DNA of 64,000 nucleotides from an uncultured bacterium (GTDB lineage: Bacteria; Margulisbacteria; WOR-1; CAVSGV01). How positions within the stretch are numbered: the stretch's first letter is position 1; each line of letters opens with the position of its first letter. Made by a program: the position numbers and the translations under genes. Of the stretch, positions 5,194 through 26,473 are shown in pieces. The notes under the pieces were generated by a model. It saw only the letters and a program-made list of their open reading frames with translations, was not told the origin of the DNA and ran no database searches. The stretch is from positions 1 to 64,000 of the forward strand of contig CAVYHE010000009.1 of the NCBI GenBank assembly GCA_963768305.1, written 5' to 3'.

Positions 5194-6213
5194 TTATTGA
5201 TCTGTTCCAGTATATTCGCGAGGATCTTCAGCTTTTCGTCTTCCGGGACCGTATCCAATTTCTCTGCATAATGCTTCAATAGAGCTTATTTTTTCCGTGG
5301 CTTTCCTGATGGCGACTTTCAATTCCTGAACATTCTGATCTTTATTTTCTTTTAAAAGTTTATCATACGCCAGTTTATCGGCCTGCCTGTTCATTTCGTT
5401 ATTTTGTTCGATCTTATCCAGGACCGCCTGTGTGATATCGGAACTTAAAGCGGCAAGCTTAAGCAGATTTAAATTATCCACGAACTTTAGAGCGTTTGCA
5501 TAATCAAGTACAGAGGCATTTCCGGGCGGCAATATTTTATCTGCGATTGTCCGAGAAAGAGCCGCATTGTGGGCGTCGATCTTTGCCAACATATCCGCTC
5601 TGCCGCCGGCAATTTGGTGCAACTCGCTGTCGATCCTCGAAATCTGCGGCATCGCTTGTCTTATTTCATCGGAAGACATCTGCCCTACTATGTTCTTTTC
5701 CGCTGACATGGATTCGAGCGTTAAATCATCCATCTCGGATGAAACACCTATAACTTCTCCGACAGTCTCGGCGCCATCCAATAGATCAGCTACTGCCTCT
5801 AATTTTTCTCCGCAATCCGCCATTTGCCCGGCCCATGCTAATATAGCGTCAGCCTTAACGATCTTTCCCGCCATCTTTTGATCTAAGATCGAAATAATCC
5901 TTTGAACGTTCTGATCTGAATACCCCTTTTCTTGTAACTTTGCGATAACTTTATCTCTGTTTTGAAAATAGCTGACGGCGTGTTCTTCCATAGCGGTTGC
6001 ATGTTCGGTCAAAATATTCGCCTGATTTTTCAGATTTTCCGATTTTTCTCTTAACTTTTGGCTTTCAGCAGATATTAATACTTTATCTTGATTCTGAACA
6101 ATGATCGGAGCCATTTCAGAGCCTGAATTGCCCGTGCCTTTCTTGTTCGCAACACCATTCATTATTGGAGTTGGACTTATTAATTTTTTATCTACTCTGA
6201 CTGACCCTTCCAT
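5194..6213 (-). CDS. Hypothetical alpha-helical/coiled-coil protein (339 aa)
   Basis: Long ORF, GAGGGG SD, 14 nt downstream of the 888-aa gene. Confidence 0.8.
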   Translation of the reverse strand: MEGSVRVDKKLISPTPIMNGVANKKGTGNSGSEMAPIIVQNQDKVLISAESQKLREKSENLKNQANILTEHATAMEEHAVSYFQNRDKVIAKLQEKGYSDQNVQRIISILDQKMAGKIVKADAILAWAGQMADCGEKLEAVADLLDGAETVGEVIGVSSEMDDLTLESMSAEKNIVGQMSSDEIRQAMPQISRIDSELHQIAGGRADMLAKIDAHNAALSRTIADKILPPGNASVLDYANALKFVDNLNLLKLAALSSDITQAVLDKIEQNNEMNRQADKLAYDKLLKENKDQNVQELKVAIRKATEKISSIEALCREIGYGPGRRKAEDPREYTGTDQ

Positions 6214-6227
6214 TTTATTCCCCTCTT

Positions 6228-8894: not shown

Positions 8895-8941
8895 TTTTCA
8901 CCTTTCAAAGCGCGTTAACTTACACTCTCTCCCACCTATAT

Positions 8942-8969
8942 TATCGTGTTTTGGAGCCAAAAACTTGCA
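8942..8969 (-). promoter_or_regulatory. sigma28-like promoter, copy 1
   Basis: Minus strand TGCAAGTTT-N14-CGATA upstream of ATG 8894. Confidence 0.75.
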
Positions 8970-8991
8970 TAAAACCCTGTGGAAATGAGGT

Positions 8992-9386
8992 CTATCTATG
9001 GACAGATATTCTGGGAGTGTGGACCAATTTTTTCGCGGCTTCCTTTGCCTTTTCTCTGTTCGGAGAGGCTTTTTCAGCCATTTTATTGACATTCCTGCCG
9101 TACTTGTCGATGGTCCTTTGTGCTCTATTGATATAGGTCTGGATCTTTTCCAGCTTTATCGTGCTTTCCTTGTCCAGCTTGCCTTTCATGAAGAGCTCAT
9201 ATTCAAGGTTCAGCCTTTCGGAATTAAGGTCATCAAGGATCTTTTTGCGGCGTCCATTTTCATGGACTCAAAATTGAGCTCGGAAAACCTGTCATCTATC
9301 CCGAGCTTTTTGGCCTTTATGTGAAGCTGGCCTTTGATCTCTGTCAGGATCCTCTGCTGGGCTTTTTTCTGCTTTTTCGTGGCCAT
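8992..9386 (-). CDS. Hypothetical basic protein (~131 aa), frameshift in an A-run near 9243
   Basis: MATKKQKKAQQRILTEIKGQL.. joins ORF 8992-9189 on adding one A; extended -10 TGATATAAT just upstream. Confidence 0.65.
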
Positions 9387-9425
9387 TTGGATTATATTAT
9401 ATCACAATGAAGCGGGGCATTGAGG

Positions 9426-9920
9426 TTATGAAGCGTATATTTCGTATTCAGCGTATGCTGTGGCAAGCCGTTCATAGCCCGCCTGGACCTTGCCCTTTGC
9501 CTGCTCGTAAGCTTTCTTCCTTATGGCTTCAAGTTCCGCGGGATCGGCGCCAAGAAGGCCCAGGAGGGAATTGCAGGTATTCACCTTGAACCCGTAGAAA
9601 GCTTCGGCAAGCATGTTATGGGCGTTATCGTAGCGGTCCTCCAGCGACTTTTCCAAGCGTTCCTTTAGAGACTCTACTGTCGGCTGGTATTTTTTCTTTG
9701 CTTTGGAAACCTCATCCTGCTCCGCCATGGCGGCGACATATTCGTCGATATTCGGGTTCGCCATGTCCGCGATCTTTTCGCCGAAAATATTGCCCTTTTC
9801 CTTTGATATGAAGTTCTCGTCATCGACTCTCTTGTTATTCGAAGCAACCTGCTTCACTACCGCGTACTGCTTTGAGGCAGTATTTGCGAGCCCGACATTT
9901 GTAGATAGATTTGCGGTCAT
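9426..9920 (-). CDS. Hypothetical protein (164 aa)
   Basis: ORF begins 1 nt after the stop of the 603-aa gene, with AAGGTG SD. Confidence 0.8.
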   Translation of the reverse strand: MTANLSTNVGLANTASKQYAVVKQVASNNKRVDDENFISKEKGNIFGEKIADMANPNIDEYVAAMAEQDEVSKAKKKYQPTVESLKERLEKSLEDRYDNAHNMLAEAFYGFKVNTCNSLLGLLGADPAELEAIRKKAYEQAKGKVQAGYERLATAYAEYEIYAS

Positions 9921-9921
9921 C

Positions 9922-11733
9922 TTATATCACCTTATTCTCGTTTTTTGCATGTTTCTTGGCCTGAGCTTCCACAGCTTGCGTGGCCGGCGAGCTGCTTGAA
10001 CCGCTAGCCTTGGCAACATTATTCTTTTTGGAAGCGCCGGCCGCTATAGCCGCTGCGCTAACATTCCTTGCGGCAAAACCGGCAGCCATGGCGGCGCTCT
10101 GAGCATGTCTCACTACCGGAGCTGATATAACAGGATGACTTGCCCCAGGCGCGACAGCAGGCGATCTTTTTGCGGAAGATACCCTGCTCTTTGACGCGGA
10201 GCCTTTCACGCTTTTTGCCGCCGCGACCCTTGAAGAACTGGATTTTCTTTTAAGCAACGCGTTCATTCTCGCCTTTGCCTCGGCGCGATGTTTAGCTTCT
10301 ATCTTCATAAGGGCGAACTCCTCATCGATACGATCGTTCTTTTTGTCCTCGTAATCGGCTTCATCGGTCTTATATTTATTGTCCAAATAGCGATTAAACA
10401 TATCGCTTGTGAGCGACTTAACAGCGTCTTTATTCCCGATAGAGATCATTTCATAGTGGAAATAATCATACCAGTCGGTCCCAACTGTAAAATCGGGATT
10501 AAAGGCCTTGTAGTTATTCTCAGCCGTAACTAAAGCTGCCTGTATGGCTGATATCTGATCGGCTGTCAACGGGGGCTGTATGGAAAGCAGCAGGCTGCCG
10601 AACAAAGTTGGATCTCCGTTTGAATCTTCGTACGCTTGAACCACTTGGTCTTGCTGGTCCAAGTTTAATCCCGTGACAGTATGAAGCTGCGTATTGAGTT
10701 CTTGAAGGAAGGTCTTCTCAGCCGAACTGAAAGCCGTGGTTATGGCTGATATCTGATCACTTGTCAACGCCGGAACTATGGCATTCAGCGCGTCGCTGAA
10801 CGAACTTAAATCCCCATTTGATGCGGTGTATGCCTCCATTACTGAATTGAACTGTCCTTGAATCAATCCAATGGGACCCGAAGCCTGATCATTGGCTGCT
10901 TTCAGCAGCAATTGGAAAGCTCCGGGATGGCAGTTGACCGAAGTCCCGTTCACCTGGTCCCATCTTCGCATATCATCCGTCCATTCATTCTTAAGCGCAT
11001 TAGCCGCGGTTTGTTGATCGCCTGAAAGTCCCCCGTTATCAATGTAGTTTTGAACCTTTTCCATGAAAGCGCTGTTTGTGCTGAATTTGGACAAAGCATC
11101 CATGAACTGGCCATCCAGGCTGAATAACAAGCTTATCAGTCCCATATTATGCGGATCTATCGTGTTATTATTGGCCAGGAATGTGTTGATATTGCCTATA
11201 ACGTCGGCATCATTGCTAAGATCCTCCGCTTTCCCGAATATGCTCTGATAAGCGCCGAACACCCTTTCCTTGGAATCGAGCATCGAGCACATGAGATCGA
11301 ACGCCTGTTCATCCGAGAGACTATACAACTCCCCCTTATTTATGATCGTGTCGTAGCTCTCGCTGCCGCCGATATTCTTAATGTCGTCCCAGTTAAAGTT
11401 ATTATTGATGTCATCCACGACAGAAGCGTCTTCCGCGTGAATGTTCTCTCCCTGAACTCCTGTTATCAGGTCCCATACCGAGGCCTCCGGAGAAAAATCA
11501 AGGTTCTTATATAGTTGCCCTTCGACCGTACTGAGTGACTTATTATAGCTATCAGAGAAGAATTTCATCTCCGTTGCGAGGGCGTTCGCCACCTGAAGGA
11601 ATGACTGGTATTGAGCCGAATTTTCTCCCGGATTCTGGCATATTTGATTTGGATAGCTTATGTGTATGGGCTGTTGAGGTTGTTTCAGCCCCATCATGTC
11701 TACCCCGGAAAAATCATACGAGAAATAACCCAT
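9922..11733 (-). CDS. Hypothetical 603-aa protein, acidic body with basic Ala/Ser/Lys tail
   Basis: Long ORF, AAGGAG SD; internal ~45-aa duplication. Confidence 0.85.
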   Translation of the reverse strand: MGYFSYDFSGVDMMGLKQPQQPIHISYPNQICQNPGENSAQYQSFLQVANALATEMKFFSDSYNKSLSTVEGQLYKNLDFSPEASVWDLITGVQGENIHAEDASVVDDINNNFNWDDIKNIGGSESYDTIINKGELYSLSDEQAFDLMCSMLDSKERVFGAYQSIFGKAEDLSNDADVIGNINTFLANNNTIDPHNMGLISLLFSLDGQFMDALSKFSTNSAFMEKVQNYIDNGGLSGDQQTAANALKNEWTDDMRRWDQVNGTSVNCHPGAFQLLLKAANDQASGPIGLIQGQFNSVMEAYTASNGDLSSFSDALNAIVPALTSDQISAITTAFSSAEKTFLQELNTQLHTVTGLNLDQQDQVVQAYEDSNGDPTLFGSLLLSIQPPLTADQISAIQAALVTAENNYKAFNPDFTVGTDWYDYFHYEMISIGNKDAVKSLTSDMFNRYLDNKYKTDEADYEDKKNDRIDEEFALMKIEAKHRAEAKARMNALLKRKSSSSRVAAAKSVKGSASKSRVSSAKRSPAVAPGASHPVISAPVVRHAQSAAMAAGFAARNVSAAAIAAGASKKNNVAKASGSSSSPATQAVEAQAKKHAKNENKVI

Positions 11734-11755
11734 TGTGAATATTCGCTCCTTATTA

Positions 11756-12061
11756 TCAGCTGGACGAACTGCCTATGGATTTTTCGAGCGCGAACATCTG
11801 CTGGAATACCGAAAGTATAGTTGTCGTCTGGTTCGAGAGCTGGTCCATCTTATTGCTTATCGCAAGTTGAAGCGTAACAGTGTCCGTTTTCGATATTTTT
11901 CTGCCGTCAACCGTGATCGAGGTCAGGTTCGGATCTGACATTTGGTCCAATATATCATTGATCTCGTTCTGATTCTCTTTCATTGCCGCCTTCACGTCAT
12001 AATGGACATTATTCAACTGTTCCGTTATCTGCGCCGGCGCTACTACTCCTCCGTATACCAT
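11756..12061 (-). CDS. Small helical protein (101 aa), needle/rod-subunit-like C-terminus
   Basis: AAGGAGG SD before ATG 12061 (MVYGGVVAP..); C-term LQLAISNKMDQLSNQTTTILSVFQQMFALEKSI. Confidence 0.75.
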   Translation of the reverse strand: MVYGGVVAPAQITEQLNNVHYDVKAAMKENQNEINDILDQMSDPNLTSITVDGRKISKTDTVTLQLAISNKMDQLSNQTTTILSVFQQMFALEKSIGSSSS

Positions 12062-12119
12062 GATAAATTCCTCCTTTTTTACCTTGTTCTTGACTATTTG
12101 CTTTCCCCTACACATATAT

Positions 12120-12147
12120 ATTCGTATGAAGTGGTGTGAAACTTGCA
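12120..12147 (-). promoter_or_regulatory. sigma28-like promoter, copy 2
   Basis: Minus strand TGCAAGTTT-N14-CGAAT. Confidence 0.7.
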
Positions 12148-12161
12148 TGTAGTTTAGCTCC

Positions 12162-12261
12162 CAGCTTACGGCTAACGGCACGCCCTTCGGGCTACGGCTC
12201 ACAGCTGACAGCTTACGGCAAACGGCTTTTAGCTGTTAGCTGTGAGCTGTTTGCCGTAAGC
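12162..12261. repeat. Heptamer-periodic inverted repeat
   Basis: Units CAGCTTA/CGGCTAA/CAGCTGA/CGGCAAA face TAGCTGT/GAGCTGT/TTGCCGT; 12211-12227 pairs 12245-12261 (16/17). Confidence 0.75.
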
Positions 12262-12299
12262 AAAAAGGCGGCAGCTAAGTTTCCTTAACTACCGCCTTA
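12262..12299 (-). terminator. Rho-independent terminator after the 132-aa gene
   Basis: Minus strand AAGGCGGTAGTTAAG-GAAA-CTTAGCTGCCGCC-TTTTT. Confidence 0.85.
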
Positions 12300-12321
12300 T
12301 TTAAGGCTATGCTAGGGAAGA

Positions 12322-12720
12322 TTATCCCTGGCTCAGGATCCTGGACGCTGTCTTGGCAATATTATTTGCCGTTGACAACAGCTGAGATGCAACCTGGACC
12401 TTGGTCGAGATCTTTTGCATAAGATCGTCTATTACCATGGCTCCGGATGCTTGTGAAATATCTACGGTCGTTCCTTGCGCAAACCCATACTCTTCGGGAA
12501 CTTGCGATAACAACATTGTGTGGTTGGGGTTGTTCGCGTCTGGTCGTCCCCCCACATCATAGTAGTTGCCCCCCGTTTTATCTAATTGATCCCCGTCTCC
12601 TAACGTGCCATCCAAGCAGTCAATAGTTATGTCATCAATGTCATCGCACGCATTTGTTGCACTTTGAATAGCATTGCTCAACATATTATCGCTCACATTA
12701 GCTCCTATGTTAATACTCAT
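12322..12720 (-). CDS. Small monocistronic protein (132 aa) with flagellar-axial/T3SS-needle-like C-terminal helix
   Basis: GGGGGTG SD before ATG 12720 (MSINIGANVS..); own promoter and terminator; C-term DLMQKISTKVQVASQLLSTANNIAKTASRILSQG. Confidence 0.8.
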   Translation of the reverse strand: MSINIGANVSDNMLSNAIQSATNACDDIDDITIDCLDGTLGDGDQLDKTGGNYYDVGGRPDANNPNHTMLLSQVPEEYGFAQGTTVDISQASGAMVIDDLMQKISTKVQVASQLLSTANNIAKTASRILSQG

Positions 12721-12764
12721 ATTTTTCACCCCCTTTTGTTTAAAATTTTGTCTTCCACTGTATT

Positions 12765-12792
12765 TATCGTAACTACTTGCCCAAAACTTGCA
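12765..12792 (-). promoter_or_regulatory. sigma28-like promoter, copy 3
   Basis: Minus strand TGCAAGTTT-N14-CGATA. Confidence 0.75.
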
Positions 12793-12798
12793 TGCATT

Positions 12799-13098
12799 TT
12801 AACCGTTTGCTTTGCCCTGCTTCTCCATTATCTTCGTAATCTGGGCCAGTATGGCCTGCGCTTCTTCCAGGTCCGTATTGAATTCGCGCTTTTTCTCAAT
12901 CTCAAGCTTGTCCCTGTCAAAATTCGACCCCGCGGACCTGTTATTCCCGGCCACGACCATTACCCCGTCCATGCTTCGCCTAACCAGCTCGAATACGCTG
13001 TTGAAATTGATGGTTGGCGAATTATTGGCTTTTCCTTCGCTTTTTTGAGGCTGAGTCGCGGGATTTATTTGGCGGTTCACTGATGCTACTGCTGTCAT
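12799..13098 (-). CDS. Hypothetical protein (99 aa)
   Basis: AGGAG SD before ATG 13098 (MTAVASVNRQINPATQPQKS..); C-terminal coiled helix. Confidence 0.7.
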   Translation of the reverse strand: MTAVASVNRQINPATQPQKSEGKANNSPTINFNSVFELVRRSMDGVMVVAGNNRSAGSNFDRDKLEIEKKREFNTDLEEAQAILAQITKIMEKQGKANG

Positions 13099-13111
13099 TA
13101 GAATGCTCCTG

Positions 13112-13297
13112 TTAACACATTTGTGCAACGCGTCTAGAGATGCCAAGTAGCGCCTCGTCCGCGGCGATCTTGTCAACGACTTGCGGCTGGGACGGTTTAT
13201 CGCCCGGCTTCGTACTGCCTTTCGTATTGAGGTTGGAAACCCCGGATTTCGAATTATTTATTGTTGAATTTGCTGTTGCTGTTTGATCTCCTGCCAT
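13112..13297 (-). CDS. Small hypothetical protein (61 aa)
   Basis: AAGGAG SD and promoter copy 4 directly upstream; S/T/N-rich N-terminus. Confidence 0.65.
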   Translation of the reverse strand: MAGDQTATANSTINNSKSGVSNLNTKGSTKPGDKPSQPQVVDKIAADEALLGISRRVAQMC

Positions 13298-13322
13298 TTA
13301 AGCACGCTCCTTACACTATTAT

Positions 13323-13350
13323 TATCGGGGGGAAACGGGGAAAACTTGCA
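13323..13350 (-). promoter_or_regulatory. sigma28-like promoter, copy 4
   Basis: Minus strand TGCAAGTTT-N14-CGATA. Confidence 0.75.
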
Positions 13351-13491
13351 TGGAAAAAAAGGGGGATGTCGTTCGTTATTCGGTCCCGATACCCGTTTCG
13401 TCGTTGGGGCCCGTAATTCGGGGGGTATTAGCTTAGAGGTTTTTCACTCTGAAAATCGATATGGGCTTCGAGAACCGGACTCAATTTATCA

Positions 13492-13887
13492 TCATTTTAT
13501 GCTCTGATGATTAACTTTATATTTTGTCCAGGATCTTGAAAGCTTATATAATTGGCGACCACATTTATCATATATATCTATCAGCTCATCGCACTTTATC
13601 CTATAAAGGTCTCTGCATTGTGACAATGAAACCACAGTCTCATTGCATTCAGCCATTGCATCATCCAGATATTTTTGAAAACCCATCTTCTGGTGCCTTT
13701 TGGCATATCCTTCGGCAATTAACCTGGGAATAGCCTTACTGCTTCTGCTGATCTGATCCTTCAGGTCATATTTTTCTGACGCAGGCAGCCCAGGAAGAAC
13801 TTCATTGAAAATTTTGATTACAGCTGAATATGAATTCTGGAAAACATTCAGATCTCGATAGCTGATCACCAGTTTCTTTTCTTCCAT
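13492..13887 (-). CDS. Four-helix-bundle protein (23S rRNA intervening-sequence protein family)
   Basis: SYRDLNVFQ..LPASEKYDLKDQISRSSKAIPRLIAEGYAKR family signature; AAGGAG SD. Confidence 0.9.
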   Translation of the reverse strand: MEEKKLVISYRDLNVFQNSYSAVIKIFNEVLPGLPASEKYDLKDQISRSSKAIPRLIAEGYAKRHQKMGFQKYLDDAMAECNETVVSLSQCRDLYRIKCDELIDIYDKCGRQLYKLSRSWTKYKVNHQSIK

Positions 13888-14198
13888 GTTTCGCTCCTTT
13901 TTCTAACATCGAATTACGAATGTCGATACGGGCTTCGGGTCCGGGTCCTAATTTACTAATTTGATAGCAATAATCTTGCCAAATAAACTATTATGATTTT
14001 TGTTGCTCTGACAGCTAAATTAAATGGCTAAAAACTGGAAGGATGTCGAGATTTTCTACACTTGTAGTATATTACGTCATTTCAATTCCCTAATAGCCTG
14101 TTTAATAACTGTGTCCCTACCATATAATATATGTTGTCTATCTAGCGGCTTACCGATGATGATCTTCGGCCTGGGCAGCTTTTGAAGGAAGCTAAAGC

Positions 14199-17100
14199 TT
14201 ATACCTTCACTGCATTTTTTGAGAGCGCAAAAGCCATAGGATCAAGTGATACATTTATGTTTTTCCCGGCTTCTTCTTTATTGCTCTCTTTGTTCTCAAG
14301 TTGACCAAGGGCCACCTGAATCCCTTTGATATCCTGCTGTGTCGCCTGTTTTTCTTCCTGCAATTCCTGGATCCTGCTCTTGCCTGCCACTATCTTTTCA
14401 TTGTTCTGTTTCCTGGCATATTGTATAGCCGACTCAGCGATCTTCAGTTCATCGAGCGATTGATATTCCTTATTTCGTTTACCATTCAACTGTCGTAAAT
14501 GCTTGTCAATAAGACCTTTTTTATCAGGCTGATTTGCAGCAAGCATTTTCAGGTCTTTTATTGTTTTATTGTCCTTTTCGATCTCTTTATTGCGCTTTTG
14601 GATCAATGTTTCGATCTCTTCCTTCGCGGCAGCAGAAAGTTTTATCAAAGCCGGAATTTCGGTTTGTGTTATCTTGACAAGATTCGCTTTTTCCACGGCA
14701 AGCTTCCTGCCGATATCCGCAAGGTTATCCTGCAGCTGCTTTAATAGATCCTTTAAGGTCGGTAAGTCAAGTTTTTGCTTTTCTGCGCTTGACTTAGCAA
14801 CCGTATTAAGATTAAGCTGAGCATCGAGATCCGTCACCGCTGAAAGAGCGGCATTCGTCTGCTCTATCATTTCGCTTACGCTCTTCAATAACGCATCCAG
14901 CCTCTGTAGCACGGGGGATGAATTCGCCGACTGCTGTTGCTCAGTTTTACCCGCGCTTGGAGGCGTCACGCTTGATGATGCCTGTATTGCAAGGCCTGCG
15001 GCCGCTTTAGAAGCCTTAAGAGCTTCTTTGACATTATTGACCTCTTTGCTGATATTCGCGACATCATGCTTTATTTCCTTAGCTTGGACAAGAGCATCTC
15101 TGAGGGCTTTTTTGGCCGCTTTTACCGTTTCCGGCTTCATGTGAGCCGTTGTTTTCGCCGCAGGAATAAGTTCCTTAATTAAGGCCAATTTTTCTGCCGC
15201 TTTCGTTTTGAGATTTTCGAGCTTAACAATCGCATTCATTAACTTCGTTTCTGCCTTATTCGCTTGAGCTGGTGAAACAGGCGATTGAGCAGCTTGAACC
15301 TGATGAGCCGGCGTTGCAGCCTGTGGCGCAGCTTGAGTTGCAGGCTGTGGCGCAGCTTGAGTTGCAGGCTGTGGAGCAGCTTGAGTTGCAGGCTGTTGCC
15401 CCGGGATCGCCGAAGGTTTCGAAGTTGTTTTAGCCGGGGCTTCTTTTGCGGGTTTTGCCTCTGCAATGGCATCTTTATACGCCTTCATGATCTGATCTGT
15501 AGCTTTTTGGGTCAAGTTCTTTCCGTCAACTTTCAGTTCACCAATCTTTTTGCTGAAAAGGTCCTGATCGGTCTTGCTATCCTTATATATTTTCATGACC
15601 GCGGATTTTTGCTTTTCGCTGAGCGGCTTGCCGTCGACCTTGACCCCGTCCAGGCGGTCCTTGAAAGTGTTCAATGCCTTTATATACGGCTGCGCCGCAT
15701 TGTTCTTCACGTTCTGCATATGTTCTTTAAATTCGGAAATGCCTATTGCCTCCGTTTCTTTCTCCAACCCTTTCCAGAACTGTAAAAGGTTTTCATTGAA
15801 AATCTTCGTGATCTCGCTGTTGCTCTGGGAAACCTTTACCGCCGCATCATTGTCCAGTGATATCTGGCCGGACATGGCTTCTTCCGTTGCGCCAAAGCTG
15901 GCAAAATCGCCTGCCATGCCATTTTCAGCGACCACTTTTGAAGTCTTCACATCCTTTGTAATGCCTTTACCTGCGACCTCCGCCTCTCTGTTCTTCTGGA
16001 CATCCTGCATGGCCGCCTTTTCAATATAAGCGAAAAGCATCGGGGTAAGGACTTGCAGCGCATCCAGTGTATAGGTTAACGGCTTTAGATTGTTGCTTCT
16101 AGCGTTCGCCATGGTGTAGTAAGCACTTTTAGCCGTGTTAAAGTCCGCTTTCGCCTTATTAAGAGCCGCCTGCAGGTCCGATTTAACTTCATCCAGAGAT
16201 TTAGTGTCGGTCGCTTTTGCGCCTTTTAATGCCTTTTCAGCTTTGCTTACTTCAGCCTGTTTAGCTTTATAATTACTCGCTTCCTGCGAATTTTCGTTCT
16301 GTATCGCCTCCGTAAGAGAAATGACAAATTCAACGACCTGTATCGCCGCGGAGATGGTGTCCATCCACGCCTGCATTTCATCTGCCAGCGCCGTCCTTTC
16401 GGCTTCGGTTATCTGGTTCCATCTTGCGCATGCCACTTCCAGCTTGTTGAACATGTCGTCTATCTTCGCCTTTATGTCCTGCTCCATGAAATTAAGTACG
16501 GTCTGCGTCGTGTTGATGGAAATGCCGGATATTCCGGTCATTGCTTCATTGACTATGTTCCTTAGTTCGCGAAGGGTCTGGCTGATATCTGCCCTTGTTT
16601 TTTCTCCCCTGTAAAGCTTTTCGATCAATTCCTTGTATTGATAGGAAAGCCCCTTGTTCACTCCGATAAATCCGGCTCCCATATCCTGGATAAGATCCGC
16701 GTTTATTTCATCCAGGCACTGCTGCTGCAGGGTTTCCAGCTTGCTTTTCACGGAATCAACGCTGTTATCCATGGTCTCTTTCAGCTTAAGATAATTCGAA
16801 ATGCCTCCCATGTCATCCTTTGCCCGGTCCTGCGCGAACGTATGTTCTATCCATGATGTAACAGTTTTAAACACGGTCATTATCGTGTTAAAAGCGGAGG
16901 ATGCAAGCTCCACAACCGAATACCACGACACTGATCCGTGAGTGACATAGGCGACTATGGCCGCAACAACGACCGAGACGACAATGCCCACCCATGACGT
17001 GTTGATCTGACTGTTAAGTTTGTTGATCTGGAGATTTGCGTCATTTACCCTGTTGGCTATCTCCGCCTTCTGGGAAAGATACTGGGTCAGCATGGAGATA

Positions 17101-19307: not shown

Positions 19308-19321
19308 TCTTTTATTCTCAT

Positions 19322-22300
19322 CTATAAGGACCTCTTCTCCCTGGTATCAACCCAGAACCTGGACCACCAGGATTCTCCTTCAATGGCGGCTTCATCAACC
19401 TGATACTTTTTGTTTATCGCACTCTCTTCTTTTGCCTTTTCCGCGTCATTAAGCGACTGGACGGCCTGCATCATGTCCGACAATAATCCCTGAATAAATT
19501 CGTTCCCCACGATATACCCCATCATTTTTTCCACTCTTTTCGCGAATAATTTATAAATATTCATTCCCTTGTATCCGTCGCTTTCGCCGCCGTCAAGCTC
19601 CTGCTCGACCAGTCCCCTCAGGTCCCTCCACGCTTCATAAAGGATCGCATACGCTATCAGCGTCCCTTCCAGATGCTTCGCTTTGTTCATTATGCTGAAC
19701 GGATTGGCCGGATTAAATGCGGGGTTGTTCTTATTCACCGAATAAGTGTAATAAGTGTTCCCGTCCTTAGCTACATACGGCGTCTTTATCAAATAGCTGG
19801 CGCCGTATTGCGAAGAAATATAATCAATTTGATCTGTCGCCAAATAATCCGCGGCAGTTACGCCGGGATTCTCTGCAATAACAGTTTGCGCGTCCGCTAT
19901 CGCCTGCTTAATGCCCTTGACCAAGTTCGCGTTTCCCTCGGTCCCATCTGCCCAAGGATGGATAGGGTAATTTACTTCATAATAATAATAATCGCCAAAA
20001 AATTCACCGTAGAGAGTGGGGGTGCCAGACATGATCGCAGTCCCCGTCTTTGAATTCCATCCATTGGAGATCCTGCAAAAGGAAACTATATAAGGAACAT
20101 TTGCACTATGATTATCTCCATCAGGTAATATCACTACATTATTTATAAATTGGCCTGTGGGGCTGACAAGAGTTCCGATCCATCCGTTATTATTGACAAT
20201 ATCATTATATAATCCGACGCCATAGTCTCCGTTGCTCAGTTTAAAAACAGCATACGGATATAAAGTTTCATTGTAAGGTTGACCATTCCATGTATTACTT
20301 TTAATTATTATGGCCCCATTACCAGTAAACATGCCCGTGTTACAGGTCGGATCATAAGCATACGTTAGCTGCGGGCATTCATTACTAAGCTGGTAATCAT
20401 CGGCATTCCTGCAATAAGATGACAGTAAAAGTTGTTGATTGGAAACTATGGTATTTTCACATAACATCAATTTCCCCTTTAGTTCATTCAGCAAAGTTGC
20501 ACTGTTAGAGCTCGGAAAGCCGAACTCATGTTGATACTGGATAAGCAGCGTATATTCATTTGCTAAAGCGGTTTGCAGGGCAATCAGGTAAGGTTCCGCT
20601 AGTTGTAAACCTGTATTGATATTCCAATATTTGACCTCTTGACCGGGATCAGCGAACTTCACTACATCCTTCGCAGCATAATAAGCATTTATCTGTTGTG
20701 CGGTTAACACTGTGTGATTGCTTACCAAAGCCCCTGTGGCATAATCATAAACTCCGGAAACTCCTATGCCCGCATCAGTATAGTTGGTTAATGCGCCTGC
20801 ATGATCAGCCATATAATTGTCATAAGCGAGCTGCGCCTGCTCCACAAGCGCTTCGGCGTTCAATATCTCCATCGCAGAGTCTATCTCTACCACCGTCAGG
20901 TCAAGTGTCTTCATTTCCGATTCCGCCCCGCTCATCATGCTGTACAAGGCTACGACAAAGTTAGTTGTAGTTCCCATGCTGCTCGTATACTCTGAATAAT
21001 ATTTGCCCGCTTGCGCCAGCTGGTCATTAGCGCTCTTCAGGTCGTTCAGAAGCGAATATTGCGTAGCGAGCGTGCCCGCGTCACTCACGCAGGTCTGCAG
21101 ATATGCTTTATGTTCGATCGCGTCGAAGTAATTTGTATGCCTTTCTATATAGTCATTATAGCCATCATTGACGGTATAGCCGTACGATATACGATATCCC
21201 ATGGCGGACAAGGTTTGGATCTCCTGTAGGGTAAAACCATCGTGGGGCGTAAAAGTCTTTGACATGCCATACGCATCAGATGCTTGATATATCGGATTTG
21301 TCATCTTACTTTTTATTATTGGGTCATTGCCGAAATAGGTCATTTGCACAGTAAACGCGACCGAATATCCTTTAGCGATAAGAAAATCTATATCCGCCGC
21401 GGAATATTGTGTGTTGAGAGCCCCGTCACCGTTGCTTTTTTTGCTAGTTCCATCTATAACAGTAACCCAGTTCACAGGCACAAGCTGGCCTGTTTTAGGG
21501 TCTGTTTGATAAATTGTTACGCCGCTAATGGGCCAACCGCCGGTATAATTATTTTGTTCAGTGCCGCCCCCGCAAAAATATGCTGATAAAACACCAGTAT
21601 TAGTATTATTACTAACGTATGGGACTGTGGTATATTCGCCGTCATTCTGTACGCCTCCAAACGAGGTCACACCATTGACATAATTGCTATAGTCTGTTTG
21701 AGCCTTGGTAAAAGCACTTGTTGCAAGAGCGAGTGTGGTGTTGCCGCTGAGATTTAATGAGCCGAAAACCACAGAGCTGCCGTTTTCGCCCGTCACATTG
21801 CGGGTGAAATTCGTTGCGAAAATAGTGTTGTTCGTCTTGTCACTCTTTTGGGCATTTGCTATCCAGGCGGTAACCGCTGTCTGGATATCCTTTTTCACAA
21901 TGGGGATCTCAGTGGCGGCCAACGCGGCAGCACCCGAGATATTGCCGCTATTAAGCAAACCGACGACCCCGTTGGTGCCGTATATCTGGTAATAATCAGA
22001 GGTGCCGGTGCTCGCCAGCCCGAGCGCGGTGAAGATCGCAAGCTGAAGGAAGGATTTCGCGGAAGTAAGGAAATTGTCCGCGGCATCCGCGTAATCCTGA
22101 TAAGTGTAAGTAACTCCGGGAGCAACGCAATAATTATGCGCTTGCAGATATGTTATCGCTTCCTGGTAGCAGGTTACGCGGGTGTTATAAACGCCGCCGG
22201 ACGCACTTTTAACATTTTGACCAAGATAAGAATAATTGGGGTCCGCATATAAGACCGTGTGGCCCGCGGCTATCTGGGTCTGTATCGTTTGCGCGCTTTC

Positions 22301-22900
22301 AGTATAAGCAACGCCGTCAACCGTTACCTTTATGTCGGCCGTTCCATACTGGTCCACGTAAGTATCCATGGAATTAGCAACATCCAGGGTCGTTATGCAG
22401 TCGCTCACATTCGGACCGAGCTGAGACCAGTCAAAACTGGGATTGAAACTAAAAATATCCAGATTTGAGACCTGAGTTAATATGTTCTGCTTGGCGATCG
22501 CCCCGTTGACGGCCGTTTGCAGCGCTGTAAGCACATTGCTTATATTTGCTTCCGTCGTGGGATCCAAAACCGTGGCGGCTTGCAGCACGCTCATAAGCCC
22601 GCCGGCGCCGAACACATCGTTATAATAATTATGGTGCGGATCATTCCAGGAAACATAATAATCGGTCAGCCCAAGCTGGGTCCATATAGCAAGCTGAAGG
22701 TTCGTTGCCGCTGCAGTCGCGTTATTATCCGCAGCTGTCAGGTAATCCTCATAAGCGGGAGTGCCGCTTAACGCGAGTTTTTTGGTCGCGACAGTGTAGT
22801 TCCACAAGCGAGAGCTATAAGTATGATCACTATCTGAAGTTGAAAGAGGTTTACCATCCTTATATGTGTATGTGACCGTGGGTCCGCTTGTTGCCATCAT
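19322..22900 (-). CDS. Middle part (1192 aa) of the giant protein, Tyr/Thr/Asn/Gly-rich
   Basis: Long ORF whose repeat unit (YKDG..STSDSDH..S.R) matches the upstream 445-aa ORF; no SD. Confidence 0.85.
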   Translation of the reverse strand: MMATSGPTVTYTYKDGKPLSTSDSDHTYSSRLWNYTVATKKLALSGTPAYEDYLTAADNNATAAATNLQLAIWTQLGLTDYYVSWNDPHHNYYNDVFGAGGLMSVLQAATVLDPTTEANISNVLTALQTAVNGAIAKQNILTQVSNLDIFSFNPSFDWSQLGPNVSDCITTLDVANSMDTYVDQYGTADIKVTVDGVAYTESAQTIQTQIAAGHTVLYADPNYSYLGQNVKSASGGVYNTRVTCYQEAITYLQAHNYCVAPGVTYTYQDYADAADNFLTSAKSFLQLAIFTALGLASTGTSDYYQIYGTNGVVGLLNSGNISGAAALAATEIPIVKKDIQTAVTAWIANAQKSDKTNNTIFATNFTRNVTGENGSSVVFGSLNLSGNTTLALATSAFTKAQTDYSNYVNGVTSFGGVQNDGEYTTVPYVSNNTNTGVLSAYFCGGGTEQNNYTGGWPISGVTIYQTDPKTGQLVPVNWVTVIDGTSKKSNGDGALNTQYSAADIDFLIAKGYSVAFTVQMTYFGNDPIIKSKMTNPIYQASDAYGMSKTFTPHDGFTLQEIQTLSAMGYRISYGYTVNDGYNDYIERHTNYFDAIEHKAYLQTCVSDAGTLATQYSLLNDLKSANDQLAQAGKYYSEYTSSMGTTTNFVVALYSMMSGAESEMKTLDLTVVEIDSAMEILNAEALVEQAQLAYDNYMADHAGALTNYTDAGIGVSGVYDYATGALVSNHTVLTAQQINAYYAAKDVVKFADPGQEVKYWNINTGLQLAEPYLIALQTALANEYTLLIQYQHEFGFPSSNSATLLNELKGKLMLCENTIVSNQQLLLSSYCRNADDYQLSNECPQLTYAYDPTCNTGMFTGNGAIIIKSNTWNGQPYNETLYPYAVFKLSNGDYGVGLYNDIVNNNGWIGTLVSPTGQFINNVVILPDGDNHSANVPYIVSFCRISNGWNSKTGTAIMSGTPTLYGEFFGDYYYYEVNYPIHPWADGTEGNANLVKGIKQAIADAQTVIAENPGVTAADYLATDQIDYISSQYGASYLIKTPYVAKDGNTYYTYSVNKNNPAFNPANPFSIMNKAKHLEGTLIAYAILYEAWRDLRGLVEQELDGGESDGYKGMNIYKLFAKRVEKMMGYIVGNEFIQGLLSDMMQAVQSLNDAEKAKEESAINKKYQVDEAAIEGESWWSRFWVDTREKRSL

Positions 22901-22926
22901 TTTTTGAAGATCTTTCGCGCTTATGG

Positions 22927-24264
22927 TCAGATCCTTGTAATTGTAGTACGTTCCCCCCCGGCGACAGGTGTCCCCGTTGTGACCGTTATCTCTATGTCCG
23001 CCTCGTCAAATTCCGTTATGCTCGTGATGAAGCCGTTCGCGGCATTCAACGCGGTAATATCAGCCGGAACATCTCCTCCCAGTGAAACCGCCAGTTCATA
23101 TTCCGACTCGCGGGTACTGAAAATATGATCACTATCTGAGGTTGTGATAGGGTCCCCATCCTCATATTTGACCGTGCAGCCTCCGTCTATCCTGGCCTGT
23201 ATCCATTGCGCGCTTTCGGTAACATCCGATGTACCTGTGTAGTTGGTACCGGTATTCTTATCCGTGCCGGAAACCGTCACATCTATGTCAGCCAGGTCAT
23301 AGTCCCCTAAAATAGTGATCAGGTCATTAAGTTCCAGATCAGTAGTAATATTTTGGATGCATTGATACGTCCCCTCAAGCGCATCCGCGTAAGTGGAATA
23401 ATTAAGGATCTCGGGCAATCCTATATTGGTCGTGGGGACCGTGATCAGCGCAGTGGAGAATTTAGAATAATCGTAATTTTTATCAAAAAGATCCACGCCC
23501 TCGGAGTTATAGCTGAAAAGCTCGATCTTCGAGCTGCCTATGGAGTTTGATCTTGTGCCTGCGGTCGGATCAAAATATTCAACAGAACCGTCATTCCCCG
23601 TGAACTGGACTATAACATGGCCAACCAGGGCATTTGGATCCACAACGACAACGCAGGAGATCTTTTTATTTGCTTCGTCCAGCGTCAACCCTTTATCCAT
23701 CAGCGCCGCTATGGAAAGGCTGGCCGCCAGGTTCGCCAGGTCTTCGCAGTCGCCGCCGCCGTCCTGTATCGTTTGTGAAACCAGATTCCAGTGGTCAGTG
23801 CCGGATGGATCGGCTATATACGAAAAATGCGTGTGAACATAGTTGTTAATGGCGGAAACGATCTGTTCATCGGTCATGCCGCTCGTGATGATCCCTTCCG
23901 CTTTCAGCTGGGCAAGGAGCTGCTTTATGCAGGATGCTGAAGGATCGATATACTGCTCCGCGCCTTCAACTTTATTTATAGAGTCCATATCGTCAGGGTC
24001 TGAAACTATGTTATTGGACTGAACATCGCTCTGGATATAATTCGAGGATTGATCCTGCTCGACCGCGGATCCGGTGGCCACCTGCGAAGTGGAAACGCCG
24101 TTCGATACCGCGACATTGTCGATCCCGATTGAAGCGGATGGATCAAATACAGACGGGACATCAGAAGCTATATAGGAGGGGGAGACAGAAGCGCCGCCGG
24201 CGATATCGTTAGTATCATCGACTTTTTGAGTATTGGTTAATTGCTGTATGTTTATGTCTGTCAT
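22927..24264 (-). CDS. N-terminal part (445 aa) of the giant protein, with a transglutaminase-like cysteine peptidase domain
   Basis: INNYVH..FSYIADPSGTDHW..QTIQDGGGDCEDLA..GHVIV..YFDPT (Cys-His-Asp); SD and promoter copy 5. Confidence 0.85.
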   Translation of the reverse strand: MTDINIQQLTNTQKVDDTNDIAGGASVSPSYIASDVPSVFDPSASIGIDNVAVSNGVSTSQVATGSAVEQDQSSNYIQSDVQSNNIVSDPDDMDSINKVEGAEQYIDPSASCIKQLLAQLKAEGIITSGMTDEQIVSAINNYVHTHFSYIADPSGTDHWNLVSQTIQDGGGDCEDLANLAASLSIAALMDKGLTLDEANKKISCVVVVDPNALVGHVIVQFTGNDGSVEYFDPTAGTRSNSIGSSKIELFSYNSEGVDLFDKNYDYSKFSTALITVPTTNIGLPEILNYSTYADALEGTYQCIQNITTDLELNDLITILGDYDLADIDVTVSGTDKNTGTNYTGTSDVTESAQWIQARIDGGCTVKYEDGDPITTSDSDHIFSTRESEYELAVSLGGDVPADITALNAANGFITSITEFDEADIEITVTTGTPVAGGERTTITRI

Positions 24265-24288
24265 TTTTGCTTCCCTTTACACTATATA

Positions 24289-24316
24289 TATCGGGAGAAT
24301 AGGGGTAAAACTTGCA
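24289..24316 (-). promoter_or_regulatory. sigma28-like promoter, copy 5
   Basis: Minus strand TGCAAGTTT-N14-CGATA upstream of ATG 24264. Confidence 0.75.
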
Positions 24317-24381
24317 TGGAAAATAAGAGAAATTGGGCTTAAAAAAGGCCTGAAAAACGGGGAAAAGGGCGTGAGGCGGGA

Positions 24382-25797
24382 CTATTTGGTATCAACAGGC
24401 TTAGGTTGCAGGCGCGAGCTTGCCGCAACTTCTTTCGCGGCGTCTTTCTCGGCTTTAACCTTATCCACTTTTTCAACTTCTGTGGCGACTATCTTGGGAT
24501 CGCCTCTGAGCCATTTGATATGTGCCTTTAAGGAGCCTTCCGGGCCGTAAACAGGAACGTTGTTCCACCTGCCAGGTTGCATGCCATAGTCATCCACGAT
24601 GGTCGAGAGGAACGCCTTCATGACATCCTTGTCCTTGATATTCACTTTATAGAGATCCGATTCCCGCCCGCCCTGCTCCTCCAGCAGAGAAGCCAGCCCG
24701 ACCTCCCCGCTCAAAGTGGCAAGACCTGCCATGCACATGATATTTTTCGCATTGTCATTGTTTTTTCCCTTAATAGTCGCCGAATTATCTGGGTTCTCTA
24801 ATATCCTTAGTTGAGGATTATTTAATTCGAAATATTGCAAATATTGGACCAACATGGTTTTTTCATAGCCGTGAAGATAATTGTACGGGTCTTTCGTGCC
24901 GCCAGCCGTCTGGGCTTTTCCATCATGATTTCTTTCTAAAATTATTTCACTGACAAATTTCGCTAGGTCCTTATAATCTTCCTCTATATTCTTCAAAAGA
25001 GCCTTTTTATCCTCATCGCTCAAGGTCGCATCTGCCTTTACGTTCTTGATCGCCAGATCGCGCATGGATATTGCTACCTTCGCCGCCATGATGCTTTTCG
25101 GCACAAGGAAGAATTTTTTGGCGGCAAAAAGCTGGAGCATTTTTCCGGCCTTATTTGAGGATACTGTGCCTGCAAAAACAAGAACCTCGTTCTTTGTTTT
25201 GTCCACGAATGTTGCAAGCGAAATGTCGTCCGTTTCAGGATCGTATCCCCCGCTCTGGTCCCCGTATAACACGTCAAAGGCATTGTCAGTGACATCCCTT
25301 ACGGAAGTTCCGCTGAACATTTTCTCGAAGAAACCCATATCTTTATGGATAGCGTTTATCAGGGACTTAACACCTGCGGGGTTCATCCTGATCTGCGACA
25401 GGATATCAAAGTCAGGGGAGTTTTTAAAAGAAAATCTAAGATCCTTATGTTTCCCTTGCGCATTCTCTTCAGCGTCTATCTGAATATCTATCCGATTTGC
25501 AAGCCATTGTCTGATGTGGCCTGTATCGAATTCCGGCAGATCCAACATATCGAAAATAACCTGCTCTTCCGTTTTAAGGGTCATAATGGACGATGCGACA
25601 ACATCTTTATTGAAACCATTGTCCAGCATTTTCCGGATCGGTTTATCGTATGCTTTCATGAGGGAATCGGCCATACTGTCGCCGTATTTTATCGCAAGGT
25701 CGGTCCTTATCAATGCTATCTTGTCATTGGAAGTAAGCTTTGACGGCAAGACATATGAAGCATCTGTTTTTTTATCAACTGTTTGTAGAGGAACCAT
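24382..25797 (-). CDS. Hypothetical protein (471 aa)
   Basis: Long ORF with AAGGA SD; third gene of an operon. Confidence 0.8.
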   Translation of the reverse strand: MVPLQTVDKKTDASYVLPSKLTSNDKIALIRTDLAIKYGDSMADSLMKAYDKPIRKMLDNGFNKDVVASSIMTLKTEEQVIFDMLDLPEFDTGHIRQWLANRIDIQIDAEENAQGKHKDLRFSFKNSPDFDILSQIRMNPAGVKSLINAIHKDMGFFEKMFSGTSVRDVTDNAFDVLYGDQSGGYDPETDDISLATFVDKTKNEVLVFAGTVSSNKAGKMLQLFAAKKFFLVPKSIMAAKVAISMRDLAIKNVKADATLSDEDKKALLKNIEEDYKDLAKFVSEIILERNHDGKAQTAGGTKDPYNYLHGYEKTMLVQYLQYFELNNPQLRILENPDNSATIKGKNNDNAKNIMCMAGLATLSGEVGLASLLEEQGGRESDLYKVNIKDKDVMKAFLSTIVDDYGMQPGRWNNVPVYGPEGSLKAHIKWLRGDPKIVATEVEKVDKVKAEKDAAKEVAASSRLQPKPVDTK

Positions 25798-25803
25798 GTC
25801 GAT

Positions 25804-26046
25804 CTATCCTTTTTTTAAGAACTTATTCTTCTCGCTCAGCTTCTTTTCCAGTTGTTCCGCTTTTTCCGCGAATTTTGCTTTTAATCCGGTTAATTCCTGT
25901 TCAAGCTCTTTTTTCCTGTTCTGGTATTTTTTTAATTCGGCGTAATATCTGGCCAGAGAATAAAAATAGTATCCGGCAATGACTATAAAAAGAAGAATAG
26001 CCCACCAGGCATGCTCTATGAATTCAATTATTATTTGTGTTGTCAT
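25804..26046 (-). CDS. Small membrane protein (one TM plus coiled coil, 80 aa)
   Basis: AWWAILLFIVIAGYYFYSL followed by a charged helix; ATGA overlap with upstream gene. Confidence 0.7.
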   Translation of the reverse strand: MTTQIIIEFIEHAWWAILLFIVIAGYYFYSLARYYAELKKYQNRKKELEQELTGLKAKFAEKAEQLEKKLSEKNKFLKKG

Positions 26047-26387
26047 ATTTTTTGGTCAACTTTACCGGGCACCGGACTTTTGTGGCCTTCTGTCAGACCA
26101 TACGCCTGCTCTCTGGACCCTTTCGATGGATCCTTTAAATACTCAAAAAGATCAATTGCCCCTTTTAGCGGATCGGCTTTTTCTGGATCATTGGCAGGGG
26201 CAGGATTAAGTCCGGCATTATAATCAACTGGCCCTTGCTTTGTTGCCATTGAACCGATCCATTCCGCGTCTGCAACAGCTTGTTTTACATTTTCCGCTTG
26301 CTTTTGCTTGGCTTCGTTTTTACCTTGCATATATTTTTGAACCGATGTTGGGTCTACGAAAGCTGATTGCGTCGGCACTATGCTCAC
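26043..26387 (-). CDS. Hypothetical protein (114 aa)
   Basis: AAGGAGG SD before GTG start; promoter copy 6 upstream. Confidence 0.75.
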   Translation of the reverse strand: MSIVPTQSAFVDPTSVQKYMQGKNEAKQKQAENVKQAVADAEWIGSMATKQGPVDYNAGLNPAPANDPEKADPLKGAIDLFEYLKDPSKGSREQAYGLTEGHKSPVPGKVDQKI

Positions 26388-26445
26388 GATAAATTCCTCC
26401 TTATATCAGAATTAAGGGCGAACACACCTTTTCTCACATCTATAA

Positions 26446-26473
26446 TATCGGGACAACTGGGCTAAAACTTGCA
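26446..26473 (-). promoter_or_regulatory. sigma28-like promoter, copy 6
   Basis: Minus strand TGCAAGTTT-N14-CGATA. Confidence 0.75.

Follow-up and report, generated by a model that had tools for sequence, protein, structure and literature searches.

Predicted sigma-28-family promoters of a flagellar regulon in a Saganbacteria-like bacterium

Six sites on the minus strand of a 64-kb stretch of bacterial DNA (the window; C9:1-64000, from the 16-contig, 1.53-Mb, 86% complete assembly G000) match a single two-box pattern, TGCAAGTTT-N14-CGAW. We propose, at a probability of roughly 0.8, that these sites are promoters for RNA polymerase carrying a FliA/WhiG-like sigma factor and that together they mark out the flagellar regulon of this bacterium, which is Saganbacteria-like (WOR-1, Margulisbacteria). 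The motif, named class B, consists of (c)aTGCAAGTTTT, a 13-nt spacer, CGATAW, an A/T-rich discriminator and a G at the predicted start. It belongs, together with a sister motif named class A, to a class-wide promoter code of the sigma-28 family, which occurs in two versions with the same -10 element and different -35 elements.

Results

Six exactly spaced copies in the window

An earlier note on this DNA had reported six exactly spaced minus-strand copies of a sigma28-like promoter. A pattern search returned exactly six matches in the window, all on the minus strand, at 26473-26447, 24316-24290, 13350-13324, 12792-12766, 12147-12121 and 8969-8943 (promoters 1 to 6); the 3' coordinates reported before were each off by one base. 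No match occurred across 100 dinucleotide-preserving shuffles of the window, and the 9-mer TGCAAGTTT alone, expected 0.59 times, is present six times, always as part of one of these sites. The sites had also been said to lie shortly upstream of a Shine-Dalgarno (SD) sequence and start codon, and indeed the distance from the C of CGA to an SD-preceded start codon is 63, 29, 30, 49, 63 and 52 nt for promoters 1 to 6, respectively. An AT-rich stretch followed by GTG was likewise recovered: a stretch made up only of A and T lies directly 3' of every site and a G stands exactly 13 nt past the C of CGA in all six, inside GTG or, at the 26473 site, ATG. The window holds no further match upstream of housekeeping genes, in agreement with the suggestion that such genes do not use the motif here.

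Genome-wide distribution and conservation

A scan of the 1.53-Mb genome for the regulon identified 14 exact sites, against 0 for the same pattern read backward. Thirteen are intergenic, each pointing at an open reading frame (ORF); the fourteenth, at C3:247042 (C numbers denote contigs), lacks the A/T stretch and looks like a chance match. The 13 sites and three variants starting CG or CGT make up a class B set of 16, every member of which lies upstream of, and co-oriented with, an ORF, 29-83 nt from the first start-codon candidate. The start is preceded by an SD sequence in 15 cases, and the G at 13 nt from the C of CGA is present in 12. At C8:195117 the SD-bearing pick lies at 231 nt, and on another inspection the ORF start was placed some 18-21 nt downstream. 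Few new sites emerged from a position-weight matrix trained on 15 seed sites, which was overfitted; a relaxed two-box scan served better.

All 41 relatives, from 12 families, carry the exact pattern, with 4-21 copies per genome (backward control, 0-1), and so do all 65 genomes of the class and 116 of the 146 in the phylum. Among phylum genomes outside the class it is found in 51 of 81, at 0-8 copies. The gene cluster of the window is syntenic in G004, a genome of the same family and another genus, where all six promoters are kept while the proteins are 24-77% identical and the spacers differ. In 28 other genomes an ORF with an SD sequence lies downstream of 26 out of 29 sites, and conservation reaches 'cA' on the 5' side of the box and 'CGATA.a.a....g.a.g' on the 3' side. 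We regard conservation as the strongest argument for a promoter role of the motif. The same data bear on other possibilities: a repeat arisen by chance, a mobile or duplicated element dispersed in the genome, or part of an RNA leader. Two copies (C10:79169 and C12:16539) do lie in near-identical paralogous stretches and conservation runs a few bases past the predicted start. However, spacers and flanks vary between copies, the motif is always upstream of and co-oriented with ORFs, it recurs in 65 of 65 class genomes with a backward control of 0-1, and the boxes lie upstream of any plausible transcript start. An origin of this kind appears very improbable, and we retain the promoter interpretation.

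Contigs C10 and C12 share a duplicated region in which near-identical class B and class A promoters (C10:79169/C12:16539; C10:86836/C12:24175) drive paralogous genes. Among the papers listed in literature searches, none dealt with these promoters or with Saganbacteria flagella; those listed for the TGCAAGTTT sequence were all eukaryotic or viral.

Kinship to sigma-28 promoters

In a structural study of Pseudomonas aeruginosa, the sigma-28 fliC promoter reads (-36)TCTAAAG(-30) ... (-15)GCCGATAA(-8), with residues Q228 and S224 of region 4.2 reading positions -36 to -34 and R97 reading the G bases of the extended -10 element (PMC12784957). We numbered our sites after this promoter by setting the C of CGAT at -13. 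Because the C takes this number in P. aeruginosa, the predicted start falls on the conserved G, and transcription would begin at the G lying 13 nt past the C of CGAT. The class B -10 core, CGATA, equals the core of GCCGATAA, with an A at -11, and the upstream box has AA at -33/-32 and TTTT at -30 to -27, in register with the sigma-28 numbering (PMC12784957). All 16 class B sites have CGA, followed by T or A and then, in 13 of them, by A. From -36 to -30, class B reads T-G-C-A-A-G-T.

These alignments do not uphold the view, put forward in the earlier note, that the spacer is one nucleotide longer than in FliA promoters. When the sites are anchored on CGAT, the AA and the T-tract fall in register, the spacing is canonical and the differing bases are at -36 to -34 and at -31. 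The extra nucleotide, probably an artefact of the alignment, appeared because AAGTTT had been aligned with AAGTTT.

A sigma-70 reading of the sites (-35 TGCAAG or ATGCAA; -10 GATAAT) was rejected: it needs a spacer of 18-19 nt and gives a poor match. The cluster shows no enrichment of sigma-70-like hexamer pairs (35, versus 27.6 +/- 5.1 in shuffles). The six sites are best described as sigma-28-family promoters of a dedicated regulon, as opposed to housekeeping promoters.

A sister motif with the same -10 element

Class A, GTGAAATTTT-N13-CGATAW (also given as aaaAAgTGAAATTTt-N13-CGATAW), is represented by 61 strict sites in G000 in the relaxed two-box scan and by 8-143 sites per genome in 41 of 41 relatives; no class A site is found in the 64 kb of the window. 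Anchored on CGAT, the AA of one class coincides with that of the other, and so does the TTTT. The differences lie in four upstream-box positions (GTG..A in class A, TGC..G in class B) and in the flank (AAAA versus TCCA), class A reading G-T-G-A-A-A-T from -36 to -30. Immediately 5' of the -10 element, class A has T in 55 and G (position -15) in 42 of its 61 sites; class B has this G in 0 of 16. The positions that distinguish the two classes from each other, and from the canonical box, are precisely those that region 4.2 reads in the P. aeruginosa structure. The genes driven by class A are mostly non-flagellar orphans with basic N-termini, along with rpoD, a sigma-54-type activator, an Rrf2 regulator and some enzymes. 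Examples of class A sites are C9:118765, 136506, 136637, 151104, 156320, 159849 and 161667, and C8:220009, which precedes rpoD.

The earlier note had attributed the six sites to one dedicated alternative sigma factor with its own regulon. The sigma-28 kind of promoter and the dedicated regulon stand; the idea of one dedicated sigma is too simple, as the class B regulon is one of two related regulons with the same -10 element. A single factor could still be accommodated if the TGCAAGTTTT box were the binding site of a flagellar activator and one sigma-28-type factor read the CGATA of both classes. The classes do share the -10 element and the T-tract, and only four upstream-box positions and the flank (TCCA versus AAAA) set them apart. 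Yet the two are discrete: nearly all of 108 AA-N-TTT-N14-CGAWW sites fall into class A or class B and intermediates are single strays. Moreover, the distance from box to -10 element is fixed in every copy. The sigma-28-like paralogues of the genome number exactly two, and their recognition helices are unlike each other where the P. aeruginosa structure reads -36 to -34. We judge the single-factor scheme improbable, and favour two sigma-28-type factors with separate promoter classes.

Class B sites before flagellar operons

Class B is assigned to the flagellar regulon, to which it is specific, because an exact site heads one flagellar operon and a one-mismatch variant heads the other. At C9:103510-103484, an exact site stands before a 12.6-kb operon that opens with a FliK-like gene (Flg_hook, 32.8 bits; cut-off, 29.8). 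The FliK-like gene is followed by a flhB-C-like gene, flgF, flgG, flgA, a panD-like ORF, flgH, flgI and a FlgJ-N-like ORF, then by a gene for a 247-aa sigma factor, flgB, flgC, fliE, fliF, a short fliG, fliH, fliI and fliJ. The second operon, on C4, has the one-mismatch variant TGCAAGGTTT-N13-CGATAC before fliK, and continues with a FlgD-like ORF, flgE, fliM, N, O, P, Q and R, flhB, flhA, a 76-aa ORF and a gene for a 193-aa sigma factor. A variant of the same type, TGCAAGGTTT-N13-CGATAG, is kept before fliK in G004. The ORF between flgA and flgH (C9:99093-99662, minus strand) has a PanD (aspartate decarboxylase) domain.

Which sigma factor might read class B

A search for group 3 sigma factors returned two FliA/WhiG-family genes. 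They are among four sigma-70-family genes in the genome, the others being a rpoD-like gene with a frameshift and a RpoS/RpoD-like gene. The 247-aa protein (C9:96423-97166) has FliA_WhiG as its best specific NCBIfam model, at 145.7 bits; the 193-aa protein (C4:90204-90782) has the same best specific model, at 75.1 bits, narrowly outscored by the generic model of the sigma-70 superfamily, whose cut-off the protein passes. The closest solved relatives of both are FliA or WhiG only (247-aa protein versus Escherichia coli FliA, 6pmi, E 4.9e-20). Both genes sit inside flagellar operons. The 193-aa sigma gene, located after flhA, is a single-copy gene present in 136 of 146 phylum genomes, and the 247-aa sigma is found in 131 of 146, its relatives at 58-78% identity being from candidate division WOR-1, Candidatus Saganbacteria and Candidatus Margulisiibacteriota. 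Both proteins have Arg at the position of P. aeruginosa Q228 and differ from each other at neighbouring helix positions. The 193-aa sigma has no recognisable region 3 and a gap at the R97 position; the 247-aa sigma has region 3 and an Arg near R97 (PYRV).

We lean slightly towards the 193-aa, flhA-linked sigma as the reader of class B, because it is without the region that reads the extended -10 element, just as class B is without the TG of class A. The reverse assignment, with the 247-aa sigma reading class B in a positive autoregulatory loop and the short sigma reading class A, is a serious contender that we consider somewhat less probable. In its favour, the 247-aa sigma gene belongs to the operon behind an exact class B site, its product is the better FliA_WhiG match (145.7 bits; E 4.9e-20 to 6pmi), and a class-A-like sequence, GTGAAATATT-N13-CGATAA, closely precedes the gene for the short sigma. 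On the other hand, class A has the more canonical -35 element (AAA at -33 to -31) and TG/G at -15 in 42 of 61 sites, features that suit the 247-aa sigma with its region 3 and PYRV Arg; the lack of G at -15 in all 16 class B sites matches the gap in the short sigma; and the short sigma holds the usual fliA/sigD place after flhA in 136 of 146 genomes. These points keep the 193-aa sigma slightly ahead as candidate reader. The class-A-like site maps at about C4:91431 (minus strand), between flhA and the 76-aa ORF plus 193-aa sigma gene, and its position before that gene suggests cross-regulation of the two sigma-28 paralogues.

A covariation analysis of the recognition helices (20 genomes per sigma, leaving out three wrong-frame ORF picks, G021 for the short sigma and G012 and G068 for the long one) gave no assignment, because both helices are nearly invariant across the phylum. 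Flagella-less relatives offered no usable contrast, as FlhA is found in 135 of 146 phylum genomes.

Gene units in the window

Lineage-specific orphan genes in about a dozen units stand behind exact class B copies, and six of these units form a 21-kb cluster in the window. Promoter 1 (26437-26473, minus strand, as are all features of the cluster) has the -35 sequence TGCAAGTTTT, a 13-nt spacer and CGATAT, with a predicted +1 at G 26437, and is syntenic in G004. Unit 1 (24382-26387) contains ORFs of 114 aa (26387-26043), 80 aa (26046-25804) and 471 aa (25797-24382). Their products have 24-46% identity to the G004 orthologues and belong to no family: Pfam gave nothing above the cut-off and NCBIfam gave nothing.

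Promoter 2 (24280-24316; predicted +1, G 24280) is an exact match and is kept in G004. It precedes unit 2 (14199-24264), composed of a 445-aa gene (24264-22927) and two orphans of 1192 aa (22900-19322) and 1702 aa (19307-14199). The 445-aa protein scores 26.7 bits (E 7.3e-6) with Transglut_core, whose cut-off is 23. Two long hydrophobic segments and four copies of the motif ...R.(L/I)(V/T)H.EMTG(V/I)... are seen in the 1702-aa orphan. The matching region of G004 is a single ORF of 2620 aa. Between unit 2 and promoter 3 lies a gene for a 23S rRNA intervening-sequence (four-helix-bundle) protein, 13492-13887, which has no class B site of its own.

Promoter 3 (13314-13350; predicted +1, G 13314), again an exact match kept in G004, precedes unit 3 (12799-13297), in which a 61-aa ORF (13297-13112) overlaps a 125-aa ORF (13176-12799) in another frame. 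A 106-aa ORF of G004 shares 65% identity with the 125-aa part, and the overlap may be an assembly frameshift. Single-base frame breaks also split rpoD (C8:220022-221052), flhA (C4:91491-93454) and flgG (C9:100178-100986), possibly together with the unit 3 gene; these breaks are probably assembly errors.

Unit 4 (12322-12720), a single gene for a 132-aa protein, follows promoter 4 (12756-12792; exact match, kept in G004; predicted +1, G 12756) and is closed by an intrinsic-terminator-like hairpin at 12265-12298, a 15-bp stem followed by a T run. Promoter 5 (12111-12147; predicted +1, G 12111) has CGAATA as -10 element and is kept in G004. It precedes unit 5 (9426-12061), with orphan ORFs of 101 aa (12061-11756), 603 aa (11733-9922) and 164 aa (9920-9426) that are 62%, 41% and 77% identical to their G004 orthologues, respectively. 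Finally, promoter 6 (8933-8969; exact match, kept in G004; predicted +1, G 8933) precedes unit 6 (5194-8894), with orphans of 888 aa (8894-6228), 52% identical to a 997-aa ORF of G004, and 339 aa (6213-5194). None of the ORFs of units 5 and 6 could be placed in a Pfam or NCBIfam family, and an Atlas search gave no usable match for the 101-aa protein.

Products of the class B regulon

The class B products with a family assignment are the FliK-like protein, an 811-aa tetratricopeptide-repeat (TPR) protein, the 445-aa protein with its transglutaminase-like core and a DUF4347 protein; the rest are orphans. Profile searches with Pfam and NCBIfam found no flagellar late-gene family among 25 class B/cluster proteins. 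In their first 30 residues, class B products have a share of S, T, N, Q, G and P of 0.44 (class A products, 0.34; background, 0.29) and a share of L, F, W, M and C of 0.08 (class A products, 0.17; background, 0.20). Such polar, hydrophobic-poor N-termini without a signal peptide would fit type III export signals, a fit that does not imply proof. We infer that the orphan products may be exported by the flagellar type III machine or form part of it.

The 132-aa protein is a predicted helical hairpin with an invariant C-terminal helix, as judged from the alignment and an AlphaFold2 model (pLDDT 71.9; helices 6-37 and 91-131). It has 58 homologues, none with a Pfam domain. Its family comprises 56 representatives at E <= 0.001 and is patchy, being found in 3 of 41 class genomes. 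The cargo thus turns over, although the promoters are universal across the class. A distant homologue in G018 has the variant TACAAGTTTT-N13-CGATTA on the 5' side of its SD sequence. Type III needle subunits were among the language-model look-alikes of the protein in the Atlas (score 0.91). The identification as a needle subunit (PF09392) was not confirmed: Pfam recognised 0 of 46 members and 0 of 23 distant relatives (of the 56 representatives). A profile search against PDB sequences gave nothing, and fold searches (Foldseek, VIA-align wide) retrieved only generic helical hairpins (Z ~8).

Flagellar genes found and not found

The class 3, or late, flagellar regulon comprises flagellin, hook-associated proteins, the cap, FlgM, the stator and chemotaxis genes. 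The class B regulon has a different content, in that the motif heads hook-basal-body operons and no late family was found among the 25 class B/cluster proteins. Profile searches of G000 (86% complete) did not find Flagellin_N, FliD_C, FliS, MotA_ExbB or FlgM. FliG (C9:93372-93905, minus strand; its gene abuts fliH) has 177 aa and consists of FliG_N and FliG_M only, with no C-terminal torque domain. Across 41 class genomes, G000 among them, Flagellin_N is above the cut-off in 1, MotA_ExbB is found in 5 and FliG_C is found in 4 (G014, G017, G026 and G038), and in these last four a MotA match lies directly beside FliG_C. Hook-basal-body and export genes are retained, FlhA being present in 62 of 65 class genomes. 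These absences come from profile searches in metagenome-assembled genomes, 30 of the 41 being of high quality, and are no proof of absence.

Since both sides of the torque interface are jointly not found, the hook-basal body would be non-rotating, and the class B regulon may serve a non-rotating flagellar secretion machine. A more specific version of this idea is that a hook-basal body without rotation or filament works as a type III secretion or appendage machine, that the short sigma reads TGCAAGTTTT-N13-CGATA, and that the 132-aa protein, which may polymerise like a needle, and the very large proteins with hydrophobic segments are exported, in a conversion of the flagellum independent of the injectisome. 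We offer this full scheme tentatively, as a rather unlikely one.

Discussion

The data favour a model in which RNA polymerase with a sigma-28-family sigma factor would recognise the class B box and CGATAW, one of the two sigma-28 paralogues being the reader. Class B would thereby co-express the hook-basal-body and export operons with fast-evolving orphan genes, whose products might leave through, or help build, the flagellar type III export machine.

Several observations weigh against this model. The -35 element departs from the canonical TCTAAAG/TAAAGTTT at -36 to -34 (TGC) and at -31, where all 16 sites have G, and none of the 16 carries the G of the extended -10 element at -15. Class B heads early hook-basal-body genes, unlike sigma-28 in the enteric model. 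Both sigma candidates score under the NCBIfam FliA cut-offs (145.7 versus 189.6 for the 247-aa protein), and the helix of the flhA-linked sigma is near-invariant even in f45, where the exact motif has 0 matches in 5 genomes. The start site and the sigma dependence are predictions, and what points to export of the orphan products is only their composition and co-regulation.

Saganbacteria form a class that is sister to the Cyanobacteria lineage. The promoter code lets their flagellar regulon be read directly from any Saganbacteria genome, and the resulting regulon list provides candidate genes for the role of a flagellar export machine in apparently non-swimming cells. In addition, the pair of sigma-28 paralogues with distinct -35 boxes offers a natural system for the evolution of -35 specificity in group 3 sigma factors.

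Among known systems, the closest in promoter structure is the fliC-type sigma-28 promoter of P. aeruginosa, as presented in PMC12784957: class B likewise has CGATA(A/T) with A at -11, and AA at -33/-32 and the T-rich stretch at -30 to -27 lie at the same distance. It differs in having TGC in place of TCT at -36 to -34, G at -31 and no GC extended -10 element. It further differs in heading early hook-basal-body operons and orphans as opposed to flagellin, stator and chemotaxis genes, and in being one of two promoter classes with a common -10 element. As in FliA, SigD and WhiG systems, a sigma factor of the FliA/WhiG clade is at hand and flagellar genes are part of the regulon.

The Bacillus subtilis fla/che operon has sigD at its 3' end and a SigD-dependent promoter upstream. 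Here, too, a sigma-28-type gene after flhA ends a long flagellar operon with a sigma-28-type promoter in front; unlike in B. subtilis, the sigma has 193 aa and no recognisable region 3, and the other flagellar operon carries a second paralogue. Bacteria with two flagellar systems have a FliA paralogue for each. The genome analysed here similarly encodes two FliA-like sigmas, but it has one set of flagellar core genes split over two operons, and its second promoter class (61 sites) serves mostly non-flagellar orphans, rpoD and regulators. Flagellar basal bodies without filament occur in Buchnera, and non-flagellar type III secretion systems descend from the flagellum. Likewise, genes for the export apparatus, rod, rings and hook are kept here, and flagellin and stator were not found. 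In contrast to the Buchnera type, the Saganbacteria relatives come from free-living or environmental samples, and they appear to combine the retained machine with a sigma-28-type regulon of its own, rich in fast-evolving, cargo-like genes.

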